From NCBI RefSeq assembly GCF_057098645.1, contig NZ_CM169472.1: 64,000 bases of DNA, one strand, 5' to 3'. The notes under the pieces were generated by a model, which was not told the origin of the DNA, ran no database searches, and saw only the letters and a program-made list of their open reading frames with translations. Shown piece after piece: positions 54,979 through 58,525 of the stretch. How positions within the stretch are numbered: the stretch's first letter is position 1; each line of letters opens with the position of its first letter. A program made the translations under genes and the position numbers.

Positions 54979-57900
54979 TTACTCAACAGGTTGCGGACGC
55001 GCAGGAGCGGCAGAGGCATGATGTGTTGCCGTATGACCACCTGCGGCACCTTTACCTTCGAAGGCAAAAGTAGGGCGCTGCCAGTCACTGTGACGCGGTG
55101 CCTCCGGAACATATTCCGGTGCTGGAGCGCGCGTCATTGGCGCGGTAGCGTGGTTATGCTCAACGGTGACCTCAGGTTCGACCGCAGCTACCGTTTCAAC
55201 TTCTGCTGCGACTTCAGCGACGACTGGCGCGGCAGGTTGAGCAACAACTTCAGGTTCAGCAACTACAACCTCAGCAGTTTTGGCAACTTCTTCAATATCT
55301 GCCGTCTCTTCCTGCGGTTCAACCACCGGTTCTGCGTGTTCTGCAACTTCCTGGGCTACGGCAACATCAGACTCGGTAATCACCTGCGGCTGTTCAGTTA
55401 CCGCGGCAGCAATCACTTCAGGATGCGTCGTTTCAACCACTTCAGGTTGCGGTTCGGCAACCTGAACGGGGGGTTCTACGACTTCAGCCACTTCTTCAAC
55501 AACTGGCGCGCTAACAACAGGTTCGACAGCGGCGGCGACAGGTACCTCAGTCACCATCGGCTGCACTTGTGCTTCTTCCTGTTCGCGCTGCTCTTCAACA
55601 TGTACATCTTGCGGACGTACAATTGGATAGCGGATCCAGACTTTGCCAGAGGCCAGTTCCGGAGACGCGCACGCTACGGTCAACGGCATTGGCGACTGGG
55701 TTGGATAACGCTCGTCACGATAGCGACGACGACGCTGACCACTCACGCGCAGGTGACGAGGCGAGCGGCGAGAACGACGCGGCATGCCACCGTTGTCACG
55801 GTTATCAGCATTGTTCTCTTCTTGCTGTTCTGGTGCAGTTTGCGCTACGACTGGCAGCGGGACTTTCACCAGTTCTGTGCGTGGAGCTGGAGCTTCCTGA
55901 ACAATTGGTTCGGCAGCGGCAGTTTCTTCAACCACCGGTGCGACTACCGCTTCTTCGGCTACGCTTTGCTCGTAACGCACTTTCTGATTGAGCTGACGCT
56001 GTTTACGACGCGGCTGAACCGGACGTACACGTTCTTCCTGTTCGGTTTCCTGAACAGATTGCTCTTCAACATTCAGCGCCTTCGCTTCTTGTTGCGTCTG
56101 ACGTTTATCATCGTTACGGCGGCGGCTACGTTCACGACGCGGCGCTTGTTGCTCGTCGGTGGTACGTGCTTTTTCCGTTACCTCAGCCTGCTGACGGCTC
56201 TCACGCGTCTCGGCAGTCTGCTGCTGTGCCTGGCGACGATTACGACGGTTTTCTTCGCGATTATCGCTGCCTTCTGCACGTTCACTACGGGTGTCGCGGC
56301 GCTCATTACGGTCACGGCGGTTGTTCTGACGAGGCTTGCGACGATCCTGTTGACGTTCCGGTTTCGCTTCTACTTTCGGTGCTGCTTGCTCGGACGGTTT
56401 GGTTTCTTCACCACCGCTGAACAGCGCTTTCAGTGCGCCGAAGAAGCGGCTCAACAGCCCAGGTTGTGCAGGAGCTGCTGGTGTTGCCGGTGCAGCTTTC
56501 GGTGCTGGGGCTACAACAGGTGCGGCAGGTTCAGCTGGCGTTGGCGCAGGCGGCACATCCGGCATGGCAAAGGTTGCCAGCGCAGGTTGTTCCGGACGCT
56601 TACGTTCAGCGAACTCTTCTTCAGACGGCAGCGCCATCGCTTCTTCATGCAGCTTCGGCAGCATGTAGCTTAAGGTTGGGGTTTCCTCCCCTTTACGCAC
56701 GCGCAGCACGTGGTAGTGCGGGGTTTCCATCTGATCGTTTGGCACAATTACACAGCGCACACCGTCCTGACGAGTTTCAATGGCATTTACCGCAGAACGT
56801 TTTTCATTCAGCAGGTAAGAAGCGATTGGCACAGGAACAATGGCGTGAACTTCCTGGGTGTTCTCTTTCAGCGCTTCTTCTTCGATCAGACGCAGAATAG
56901 AGAGCGACAGCGATTCGTTGTCACGCACGGTGCCAGTACCAGAACAACGCGGACAAACGTGATGACTGGATTCACCCAGTGATGGGCTCAGGCGCTGACG
57001 GGACATTTCCAGCAGGCCAAAGCGAGAAATATGGCTGATTTGAATACGCGCACGGTCCTGACGCACCGCTTCACGCAGACGGTTTTCTACCGCACGCTGG
57101 TGGCGTACAGGCGTCATGTCGATGAAGTCGATAACAATCAGGCCGCCGAGGTCACGCAGGCGCAGCTGACGAGCAATCTCATCGGCAGCTTCGAGGTTAG
57201 TGTTAAACGCGGTTTCTTCGATATCGCCGCCGCGGGTCGCGCGTGCGGAGTTGATGTCGATGGCCGTTAACGCTTCGGTGCTGTCGATAACAATCGAACC
57301 ACCGGATGGCAGACGGACTTCACGCTGGAAGGCGGACTCGATCTGCGACTCGATCTGGTAGTGGCTGAACAGCGGGATCTCGCCGGTGTACAGTTTGATT
57401 TTGCTGCTGAAATCCGGGCGACCTAATGCAGCGATATGCTGACGTGCCAGTTCGAGCACTTTCGGGTTATCGATAAGGATTTCGCCGATGTCCTGGCGTA
57501 AGTAATCGCGGAATGCGCGAACGATTACGTTACTCTCCTGATGAATCAGGAACGGAGCCGGGCGGCTTTCAGCGGCTTTTTTGATGGCTTCCCAGTGTTT
57601 CAGACGGAAGCTTAAATCCCATTGCAGCGCCTCAGCAGATTTGCCGACGCCAGCGGTGCGCACGATAAGCCCCATGCCTTCCGGCAGTTCAAGGCTTGCC
57701 AGTGCTTCTTTTAATTCGGTACGGTCGTCGCCTTCGATACGGCGAGAAATGCCACCCGCGCGCGGGTTGTTCGGCATCAGAACCAGATAGCTACCCGCCA
57801 GACTGATAAAGGTGGTTAATGCCGCGCCTTTGTTGCCGCGCTCTTCTTTATCGATCTGAACAATGACTTCCTGACCTTCACGCAACACATCTTTAATGTT

Positions 57901-58164
57901 GGGACGACCATGAGCACTGTAGTTAGCAGGGAAATATTCGCGGGCAATTTCTTTTAGTGGGAGGAAACCGTGACGTTCAGCGCCGTAATCAACAAAAGCA
58001 GCTTCCAGACTCGGTTCAATGCGGGTGATTTTACCTTTGTAGATGTTTGCCTTTTTCTGCTCGTGCCCTGGACTTTCGATATCCAGGTCATACAGACGCT
58101 GCCCATCTACAAGGGCAACGCGCAACTCTTCCTGCTGAGTTGCGTTGATTAACATTCTTTTCAT
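54979..58164 (-). CDS. rne: Ribonuclease E
   Basis: 1061 aa; conserved catalytic N-terminal half, Arg/Pro/Glu-rich low-complexity C-terminal scaffold. Confidence 0.95.
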
Positions 58165-58525
58165 CGTAACTTACTCATTATTCTTACATTGACGACTAAG
58201 CTGCGGGCAAAGTAACGCCTTTCCGGGTGTGAACCGATGGCCTCGTGTCTAGTCGCGTCGCCAACCTCACGGTTATCGTCAGCTCAAAGAGGCGCAGAGT
58301 GTCGGTTGCCCGTTTTTCATGCGGAAAAACAGCGCAATTATCAAAGAAACAGACTGGGTATTACTCTCCAGAAATATTTCCATCTACCGGTAAGGACTGC
58401 AACCCGCAGCCCGCTAACTGCCTGAAAGATCAATACGTCTTACGCCATTGCTGCGTGGATGATCGGTCGGGCAAAATGGGTTATTCCGTAAAATTTCTTG
58501 TTTTAACAAGGATGGACACGGAAAC
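58165..58525 (-). promoter_or_regulatory. rne 5' untranslated leader (autoregulatory, ~360 nt)
   Basis: Long non-coding stretch upstream of the rne ATG, before divergent rluC. Leader length is from established knowledge; boundaries approximate. Confidence 0.6.

Follow-up and report, generated by a model that had tools for sequence, protein, structure and literature searches.

The 560-codon open reading frame opposite rne in Escherichia coli O145:H28 is very probably a by-product of RNase E composition and codon usage

Opposite the rne gene of Escherichia coli O145:H28, in the 64,000-nucleotide stretch analyzed here (the window; NCBI RefSeq assembly GCF_057098645.1, contig NZ_CM169472.1), a 560-codon open reading frame (ORF) with a TTG start runs on the plus strand from 54991 to 56673 in the codon-aligned frame. 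We judge this ORF to be a non-coding shadow that results from the amino acid and codon usage of rne rather than a separate gene. The leader upstream of rne with its small opposite-strand ORFs we take to represent the known 5' UTR regulator of rne and the doubtful gene yceQ; a rough probability for this reading as a whole is 0.93. The real features of the region are one gene, rne, and one RNA element, rne5, both ordinary and already known, and we infer that the antisense ORF is not expressed. The first-pass annotation had located the ORF exactly (54991..56673, plus strand, 560 aa) and regarded it as an artefact, a view borne out by a frame that is not conserved and is devoid of purifying selection, homologs and annotation.

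The gene rne occupies 54979..58164 on the minus strand and encodes ribonuclease E, of 1061 aa, as established from the ORF list, Pfam and annotation. As in RNase E, the S1 domain (residues 36-117, E=9.9e-13) and the RNase E/G catalytic domain (RNase_E_G, 121-391, E=1.1e-98) both lie in the N-terminal half, where RNase_E_G_Thio (403-488, E=1.9e-31) is also matched, and a PNPase-binding motif (PNPase_C, 1022-1058, E=1.9e-17; 54991..55101, minus strand) closes a long non-catalytic C-terminal scaffold. The gene is 100% identical to that of O145:H28 RM12761, it is annotated as rne at the match in 5425 of 5426 complete E. coli genomes, with flgL and rluC also under the match, and the order flgL - rne - rluC is that of the K-12 map. 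The two halves differ in composition: the catalytic half (codons 1-529; 56578..58164, minus strand) contains 54 Leu and 35 Ser and holds all 10 TTA, CTA and TCA codons of the gene, whereas the low-complexity scaffold half (codons 530-1061 plus the stop codon; 54979..56577, minus strand) is rich in Ala, Glu, Val, Pro, Arg and Gln, has only 11 Leu and 19 Ser among its 532 residues, and lacks TTA, CTA and TCA altogether. Tandem repeats were considered as a source of this bias and rejected, none being found in the scaffold half.

The register of the two frames explains how such a composition acts on the opposite strand. Since (54991-54979) mod 3 = 0, each antisense codon is the exact reverse complement of an rne codon, and owing to this alignment only sense TTA and CTA (Leu) and TCA (Ser) can stop the antisense ORF. 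These codons occur in rne at positions 5, 70, 116, 151, 184, 222, 247, 299, 395 and 498, and the stop-free stretch is bounded by TAA codons at 54973 and at 56671-56673, the second of which reads on the rne strand as the TTA of Leu498 (56671..56673, minus strand). This TTA is kept in all Escherichia alleles examined, and in Citrobacter loci the position is CTA (L006) or CTG (L004, L032 and L058). The first-pass annotation had ascribed the ORF to an Arg/Pro/Glu bias of the scaffold; the compositional origin stands, but richness in these residues is not as such the cause, which lies in the poverty in Leu and Ser (30/563 codons) combined with the rare use of TTA, CTA and TCA.

In order to estimate how many antisense stops are to be expected, the RNase E protein was held fixed and its codons were redrawn, with codons 499-1061 as the target. 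Codon usage taken from the other genes of the window gave 5.0 expected stops and a probability of none of 0.0045, and usage taken from the N-terminal half of rne gave 3.3 and 0.027; the longest open stretch in the simulations had a median of 242-291 codons and reached at least 563 in 0.5-3% of them. An ordinary gene of the same length would be expected to carry about 14 such stops, against some 3-5 for a scaffold that is largely free of Leu and Ser in a gene that avoids the rare TTA, CTA and TCA codons. The share of these three codons is 0.94% in rne versus 0.85-5.8% in 40 other long ORFs of the window, and other genes too are mostly open in the codon-aligned antisense frame, for example over 213 of 235 codons at 49352..50059. 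A probability of 0.005-0.03 for the absence of stops means that the greater part of the length, not all of it, can be put down to composition and codon usage; the frame is open only mildly beyond chance, with a tail value for one gene that is unremarkable across several thousand genes. We suggest that the complete lack of antisense stops in E. coli proper would be happenstance.

The same tail value may be read in favor of a different explanation, in which a young overlapping gene restricted to Escherichia and comparable to those of EHEC and Pseudomonas takes up the whole ORF or only its first ~230 codons, which face rne codons 829-1061, and the distribution of the frame among relatives bears directly on it. 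Of 11 E. coli alleles, 10 leave the frame open, that of K-12 included, the exception being a TCA at codon 594 in strain A24, but with 1-2% divergence among these alleles this is weak evidence either way. Outside E. coli, E. albertii and L003 likewise have no stop in the promoter-proximal ~230 codons; in contrast, the full frame is interrupted by five and six stops in these two, respectively, and in L001 the single stop (CTA947) falls within the first 230 codons. Among 80 Enterobacterales, long open stretches do occur in the codon-aligned frame, with boundaries anywhere in the gene. The antisense frame is thus not kept open among relatives, as an overlapping gene would require. The stops at Leu571, Leu725 and Leu828 are common to L003 and E. 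albertii, which suggests that they are ancestral, and the frame would then have opened recently in the E. coli lineage through synonymous leucine changes, namely TTA to TTG at codon 571, CTA to CTC at codon 725 and TTA to TTG at codon 828. If it did open in this manner, part of it could conceivably be a very young proto-gene that overlaps the RNase E scaffold region, is translated in this lineage only and is of too recent origin for a selection signal, but we give this idea scarcely any weight.

Selection tests point in the same direction. Between Escherichia species the antisense pN/pS is 0.82-1.26, compared with 0.13-0.15 for rne itself, and the antisense product differs at 143-184 positions versus 51-76 in RNase E. 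Synonymous divergence of rne is not depressed in the overlap; it is higher there than in the non-overlapped half (dS 0.44 vs 0.31, 0.40 vs 0.28 and 0.59 vs 0.40), and pSN/pSS is 0.94. A deficit of nonsense changes in the antisense frame was sought among the 11 E. coli alleles and none was found (2.64 expected, 1 observed, P=0.26). These values are those of a frame that would evolve as a passive mirror image of rne.

One statistic appeared to contradict them and to favor a young overlapping gene, as the naive conditional dNN/dNS in Escherichia is 0.3-0.5 (0.43), which at face value indicates purifying selection. We reject it as a selection signal on the basis of control comparisons and of a stratification by codon position and by transition or transversion class. 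A value of 0.31 is also obtained between genomes in which both frames are broken, and the control genes flgK, flgL, rluC and yceF of the same Escherichia genomes give 0.53 (Fisher P=0.55). The "antisense-synonymous" class is composed almost entirely of sense first-position transitions (A/T, I/V, G/S, E/K), and the low ratio arises because such transitions are the commonest accepted amino acid changes and are automatically silent on the opposite strand; the only informative stratum, first-position transversions, points in the opposite direction, with 7 changes in 1531 antisense-changing opportunities versus 4 in 1467 antisense-silent ones. Pairs from other genera (17-37 pairs, dNN/dNS about 0.9-1.1), which would make Escherichia look constrained, were tried as a neutral control and rejected, since the low-complexity region is harder to align in them and their exchange spectrum is different, with many D/E swaps. 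The first-pass annotation had proposed a dN/dS analysis of the antisense frame, purifying selection being the outcome that would speak against an artefact; with matched controls applied the analysis proved negative, with no purifying selection seen on the frame beyond that imposed by the sense gene.

The antisense product and its surroundings complete the evidence on a young overlapping gene. An AGG directly adjoins the TTG start, and an AGGAG stands 10 nt ahead of an in-frame ATG at 55018, both as found by a consensus scan, and for other bacteria there are published claims of long antisense ORFs that are translated (PMC8850804, PMC9927249). From the flgL/FlgO terminator up to the antisense start, however, the scan detected nothing resembling a promoter, and two hairpins lie upstream. 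The product has a skewed composition (15% Arg, 13% Phe, 12% Leu, 5% Cys and 3% Trp, with 0.4% Lys), yields no match in a Pfam search, and in four start and allele variants from the window and K-12 was absent from a 15-billion-protein collection by exact look-up. An annotation of the ORF is absent from every record examined, the main texts of the literature searched describe neither a gene nor an RNA antisense to rne, and the main text of a survey of antisense genes in E. coli makes no mention of rne. Taken with the stops and the selection tests, these observations make a young overlapping gene extremely improbable.

A non-coding transcript is another way in which the plus strand could matter. 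Under this explanation the 3' part of rne is faced by a non-coding antisense RNA, formed by read-through from flgL/FlgO, which pairs with the rne 3' end and modulates rne, the ORF being incidental. The arrangement of the genes is compatible with it, as flgL and rne point towards each other and their stop codons are only 195 nt apart, and regulation of neighbors by overlapping transcripts has been described in bacteria (PMC12288877). Furthermore, the intrinsic terminator hairpin of rne (54936..54959, minus strand, 20 nt past the stop codon) consists of a 10-bp stem with six GC pairs followed by TTTTATTTCA on the minus strand, and since no T run follows it on the plus strand it would not halt read-through in that direction. 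On the other hand, the FlgO sRNA, the 3' UTR of flgL, placed at 54783..54860 on the plus strand by the offset of K-12 flgO (b4826) from the flgL stop, has a strong terminator of its own (54825..54853, plus strand; 12-bp stem with eight GC pairs, then a T7 run), which is predicted to end plus-strand transcription at 54853, about 130 nt ahead of the antisense ORF, and FlgO has been described as discrete ~75-nt bands (10.1101/2021.08.05.455139). Such an RNA would in any case leave the 1.7-kb ORF unexplained, and we consider it very unlikely.

Upstream of rne, the first-pass annotation had noted a long leader facing two ORFs at 58237..58425 and 58245..58658, all with correct coordinates. The leader (58165..58525, minus strand, 361 nt) holds the Rfam element rne5 (RF00040; 58189..58525, minus strand), matched over the full model (1-333) with 260.1 bits against a gathering score of 180 (E=1e-81) and stopping 24 nt short of the rne ATG. 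The 5' end of the match at 58525, which is also where the region marked by the first-pass annotation ends, lies 7 nt downstream of the -10 box of a promoter-like site, corresponding to rne p1, at 58532..58561 on the minus strand (-35 TTGCTA, 18-nt spacer, TG-extended -10 AATAAT; consensus scan), which is predicted to be suitably placed for a transcription start near 58525 and gives a leader of 361 nt, the length reported for E. coli (PMC10989929). According to the literature, RNase E controls the decay of rne mRNA in a feedback loop through this element (PMC10989929, and Jain & Belasco 1995, Diwa et al. 2000 and Schuck et al. 2009 as cited therein). It is found at the same position and above the gathering score in 17 of 18 other Enterobacterales loci, and in a leader alignment of 16 genera 9 of 61 predicted pairs display compensatory double changes, the hp2 core being invariant.

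Some Citrobacter, Klebsiella, Raoultella and other loci carry palindromic insertions of 125-252 nt inside the rne leader; the insertions are 125-127-nt palindromes, and an identification as ERIC was not sustained by a primer-site search, which gave a single weak match. Their core appears ERIC-like.

The "small opposite-strand ORFs" of the first-pass annotation do exist, with the refinement that one of them is the frame of a named gene bearing a 1-nt insertion. The 137-codon ORF (58245..58658, plus strand) is the frame of K-12 yceQ (b1085, DUF2655), whose K-12 start corresponds to the GTG at 58299, and an extra T near 58610 exchanges the K-12 ending ...FFTSCW* for another (19 protein letters, not shown), so that an intact K-12-like C-terminus is missing from the window. 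The 62-codon ORF (58237..58425, plus strand), in a second frame, is open only in Escherichia sequences; elsewhere its open length is 15-128 codons, and the start codon is missing from some loci, for example L004 and L008.

That yceQ encodes a real small protein is suggested by its annotation in K-12, by DUF2655 in many Escherichia and Shigella records (a cluster of 141 members, more than 1000 contigs), by its listing as essential in the Keio and PEC collections, and by a frame that is open in 15 of 15 Escherichia sequences and free of stops over ~98 codons in Kosakonia loci and a few others. In most genera outside Escherichia, however, the frame is lost through stops or switches of frame while the nucleotides are still conserved, and the column entropy by codon position (0.73/0.63/0.74, versus 0.08/0.03/0.83 in rne) reveals no 3-base periodicity. 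With neither an open frame nor codon periodicity across genera, yceQ does not evolve as a protein. Its conserved core falls on the hp2 region, the invariant part of the leader, the current copy of Pfam has no match to the 137-codon ORF, an exact look-up of the 137-aa product in the protein collection gave nothing, and none of the 11 RefSeq E. coli records examined carries a PGAP annotation of yceQ. The literature likewise regards yceQ as non-coding: ribosome profiling gave no reads in three conditions, transposons may insert provided that they are oriented so as to keep rne driven, and the "essentiality" is explained by TraDIS and CRISPRi through the rne promoter and leader, the promoter having been placed inside yceQ by Price et al. 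and Goodall et al. A yceQ protein is therefore highly improbable. We propose instead that the DNA here owes its conservation to the structure that the rne mRNA leader adopts and not to a protein, the ORFs facing the leader, yceQ included, being kept open only among close relatives.

These results have implications for the search for overlapping genes. The ORF opposite rne is a cautionary case, as 560 codons pass any length filter and the standard dNN/dNS statistic mimics purifying selection in a codon-aligned antisense frame. Given that low values were also obtained for broken frames and ordinary neighboring genes, screens for antisense genes should be run against controls that match the candidate in genome, codon position and transition/transversion class. 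The case also shows once more that the conservation of yceQ mirrors the RNA of the rne leader and does not reflect protein coding.

Compared with known systems, the leader of the window behaves as a typical rne5, with a full-length 260-bit match directly upstream of rne, 361 nt, an invariant hp2 and compensatory stems, and no difference was noted. The 137-codon ORF shares with K-12 yceQ its frame, its locus and 104 identical residues from the K-12 start, and differs from it in the extra T, which alters the last residues and lengthens the frame (137 codons from the first start versus 106 annotated in K-12). To the antisense overlapping genes described in EHEC (ano, laoB and others) and the two long ones of Pseudomonas aeruginosa (PMC5960689, PMC5810103, PMC9927249, PMC8850804), the ORF opposite rne is similar in being embedded antisense in an annotated gene and in its narrow lineage; those genes, however, are backed by RNA-seq, Ribo-seq, phenotypes and, in Pseudomonas, purifying selection, whereas for the ORF studied here the literature searched gave no evidence of expression, the selection tests are negative and stops interrupt it within the genus. 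A closer likeness is found with frame -1 "shadow" ORFs (Merino 1994, as cited in Mir et al. 2012, PMC3454372), for long examples of which codon bias has been put forward as the main cause (Silke 1997, cited in the same paper). Like these, the ORF lies in the codon-aligned frame, is open exactly where the sense strand is without TTA, CTA and TCA, reaches its greatest length where the sense gene has few Leu and Ser and avoids rare codons, and has boundaries that drift among relatives. It differs from them in that 560 codons is probably unusually long for E. coli, and in that the main driver here is the amino acid composition of the disordered scaffold, more than expression-linked codon bias alone.

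The window is 100% identical to Escherichia coli O145:H28 strain RM12761, and the 4.1-kb region considered here was found in 5425 of 5426 complete E. coli genomes, annotated flgL - rne - rluC every time. The 1061-aa product of 54979..58164 (-) carries the Pfam domains S1, RNase_E_G, RNase_E_G_Thio and a C-terminal PNPase_C, which identify it as RNase E. Between rne and the convergent flgL, whose stop lies at 54783 (+), is FlgO (K-12 b4826; 54783..54860, +), a documented sigma-28-dependent, Hfq-bound sRNA of about 75 nt from the flgL 3' UTR (10.1101/2021.08.05.455139), for which a search of 54500..59000 gave no Rfam match. 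Reading along the + strand, the strong FlgO terminator (54825..54853, then a T run) comes first, next the hairpin that terminates rne (54936..54959), and then the antisense ORF discussed below. In E. coli LR-58-2 (L083, hit H11) the stretch from flgL to the rne 3' end has gained a toxin-antitoxin-like pair of genes, one for a GNAT-family acetyltransferase and one of the DUF1778 family (locus positions 679..1463). A urine isolate, E. coli GN4738 (L084, hit H12), has lost rne codons 743-945, equivalent to window 55330..55938, through an in-frame deletion of 609 nt precisely bounded by two 13-nt direct repeats, ACCGGTGGTTGAA. Its 858-aa RNase E retains the PNPase-binding end; judging from published RNase E maps, the lost codons presumably include the part of the scaffold that binds enolase.

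The first-pass annotation had described a 560-codon ORF opposite the C-terminal, scaffold-encoding half of rne, and both its coordinates (54991..56673, +, TTG start) and its length are exact. Because its start is offset by 12 nt from the rne stop codon, each antisense codon is the exact reverse complement of an rne codon, and stops can only arise from sense TTA, CTA or TCA. In fact, all ten such codons of rne lie at or before codon 498 and none occurs in codons 499-1061, the terminal TAA of the antisense ORF being the complement of the Leu498 TTA. Leu and Ser are also scarce in the C-terminal half (11 and 19 residues in codons 530-1061; the N-terminal half has 54 and 35). Composition had been proposed as the cause of the open frame, and this part of the claim stands, but not Arg/Pro/Glu richness as such: what counts is a shortage of Leu and Ser combined with avoidance of three rare codons.

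When the RNase E protein was held fixed and synonymous codons were redrawn, 5.0 antisense stops were expected in codons 499-1061 with the codon usage of the window's 40 other long ORFs (P(0)=0.0045), and 3.3 with that of rne codons 1-498 (P(0)=0.027); the longest open stretch in the simulations had a median of 242-291 codons and reached at least 563 in 0.5-3% of runs. Since about 14 stops are expected in an ordinary gene as long as this region, composition and codon choice account for most of the missing stops, and the remaining 3-5 are absent by a modest margin. The codon-aligned antisense frame is also open in other genes of the window, over 213 of 235 codons at 49352..50059 and 234 of 429 at 941..2230, and codon bias has long been regarded as the main cause of lengthy frame -1 ORFs, according to the account of Silke 1997 and Merino 1994 given by Mir et al. 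2012 (PMC3454372).

Conservation of the frame was assessed in 80 species-level Enterobacterales genomes, K-12 and ten further E. coli strains spanning the identity range. It is open in 10 of 11 alleles of E. coli proper, including K-12, the exception being strain A24, with TCA at codon 594. Two loci labelled E. coli, yet as distant as other species (L001 and L003; N-terminal-half dS 0.28-0.31), carry one and six antisense stops, respectively, and E. albertii (L002) carries five. The stops at Leu571 (TTA), Leu725 (CTA) and Leu828 (TTA), where E. coli has TTG, CTC and TTG, are common to L003 and E. albertii, which suggests that they are ancestral; in that case, synonymous changes in rne would have opened the frame recently. 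Long open stretches, of up to 857 codons, are frequent in the codon-aligned antisense frame across the 80 loci, and their ends fall anywhere in rne, catalytic half included, a drift which fits composition and not a conserved gene.

The selection analysis proposed in the first-pass annotation, which had taken the ORF for an artefact, was carried out and detected no purifying selection by pN/pS, dS, pSN/pSS or counts of stop variants. In four between-species Escherichia comparisons the unconditional antisense pN/pS was 1.26, 1.17, 0.93 and 0.82, against 0.13-0.15 for the rne frame over identical codons, and the predicted antisense product differed at 143-184 positions, against 51-76 in RNase E. 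Sense-synonymous changes mostly hit the antisense first position, so antisense constraint should depress dS in the overlap; instead, the overlap exceeded the non-overlapped half in dS (0.44 vs 0.31, 0.40 vs 0.28 and 0.59 vs 0.40). Among sense-synonymous changes, those altering the antisense product were about as frequent per site as antisense-silent ones (pSN/pSS = 0.94), and the 11 E. coli alleles held one antisense-stop variant against 2.64 expected from class-specific rates (P=0.26). In clean Escherichia comparisons the synonymous rate of codons 499-1058 (54991..56670) was about 1.4 times that of codons 1-498 (56671..58164); the excess is about 2.2-fold in other genera, a value that alignment may inflate. 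Within Escherichia the catalytic half showed 0-1 amino-acid changes in 498 codons.

One statistic pointed the other way. The conditional dNN/dNS, calculated among sense-nonsynonymous changes, was 0.3-0.5 in Escherichia, which at face value means purifying selection and would refute an artefact, and it was therefore examined further. The antisense-silent class is made up nearly entirely of sense first-position transitions (Ala/Thr, Ile/Val, Gly/Ser, Glu/Lys), with 1387 silent opportunities against 75 non-silent, so that the ratio gauges how readily RNase E accepts these conservative exchanges. It was equally low where both antisense frames are broken (L002-L003 0.31, L001-L003 0.30, L001-L002 0.31). 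In sense first-position transversions, the only stratum rich in both classes, antisense-changing events were not rarer than silent ones (7/1531 vs 4/1467, Fisher P=0.55). The neighbouring genes flgK, flgL, rluC and yceF gave 0.53 between the same Escherichia genomes, with the frequency of transitions at first positions 3.6 times that at second positions (counts of 55:39 in these controls vs 48:41 in the rne scaffold, Fisher P=0.55). The low ratio is thus generic to the estimator in a codon-aligned antisense frame and not particular to this ORF. The ratio of about 1.07 in cleanly aligned pairs from other genera was dropped as a neutral control, as numerous Asp/Glu exchanges and remaining noise in aligning a low-complexity region probably account for it. 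Across loci L001-L074, Asp/Glu swaps make up 22% of single-step scaffold-half changes in other genera versus 10% in Escherichia, where Ala/Thr and Ile/Val swaps are relatively more frequent; this may be a real difference or come from noisy alignment of acidic repeats.

The predicted product of the antisense ORF (15% Arg, 13% Phe, 12% Leu, 5% Cys, 3% Trp, 0.4% Lys) has no Pfam match, four start or allele variants of it are absent from about 15 billion predicted proteins, and the ORF is annotated in none of the genome records examined. When the upstream + strand was scanned, nothing promoter-like preceded the TTG start. Inside the ORF, AGGAG precedes by 10 nt an in-frame ATG-ATG at 55018 (55003..55020, +), from which translation may be possible; this site mirrors Ala-Pro-Ala codons near the RNase E C-terminus. 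The main texts of an E. coli antisense-gene survey and of a review of antisense proteins do not mention rne.

The long leader noted upstream of rne corresponds to a known element. Rfam rne5 (RF00040) matches over its whole model at 58189..58525 (-) with 260 bits, and a consensus scan found a promoter-like site (TG-extended -10 AATAAT ending at 58532, -35 TTGCTA) with a predicted start near 58525, which would give a 361-nt 5' UTR. PMC10989929 (citing Jain & Belasco 1995, Diwa et al. 2000 and Schuck et al. 2009) reports this length for E. coli and states that RNase E controls its own mRNA by feedback through this UTR. The element occupies the equivalent position in 17 of 18 other Enterobacterales loci, and in a 16-genus alignment the hp2 core is invariant and nine base pairs show compensatory double changes. 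Several loci of Klebsiella, Citrobacter and Raoultella, and some others, carry within the leader a 125-127-nt imperfect palindrome (fold energy -47 to -55 kcal/mol), after CCTTACCGGTA and between conserved hairpins: one copy in L018, L019, L005, L007, L058 and L064, two in L054 and a shorter one in L029. We take its core to resemble ERIC/IRU elements. The rne5 match in L018 spans the insertion, and the leader of L049 is likewise longer. About 2.2 kb upstream of rne, the SraB sRNA (RF00077) was found in E. albertii (L002, 154..321, -) and Citrobacter (L004, 148..315, -).

Two small + strand ORFs reported opposite the leader were recovered exactly. The 62-codon one (58237..58425) is open in Escherichia only; the other (58245..58658) is, by K-12 annotation and comparison, the frame of the doubtful gene yceQ (b1085, DUF2655). 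A T run near 58610, upstream of the rne p1 promoter and outside the leader, is one T longer than in K-12, which changes the yceQ end from FFTSCW and a stop to a different one of 19 letters. The yceQ frame is open in all Escherichia sequences; in most other genera it is broken by stops or changes of frame, and the underlying nucleotides there are conserved, especially those mirroring hp2; column entropy is flat across its codon positions (0.73/0.63/0.74, versus 0.08/0.03/0.83 in the first 107 rne codons). The homologous frame is stop-free over about 98-106 aligned codons in seven loci of Phytobacter, Kosakonia and relatives (L014, L020, L021, L026, L028, L041, L043). According to the literature, ribosome profiling gives no reads for yceQ, some strains have it disrupted, and it accepts insertions only when their orientation still drives rne; the rne promoter and leader explain its reported essentiality. 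The broken frames and flat entropy agree with this non-coding view.

Taken together, the composition-driven origin of the frame, its lack of conservation and the negative selection tests support the view of the antisense ORF as an artefact. Its wider interest is methodological, in that conditional dN/dS in a codon-aligned antisense frame can mimic purifying selection; this is the sole such point, nothing in the region being new. The region comprises the rne gene with its terminator and its known promoter and regulatory leader; the ORFs that mirror them are not genes.
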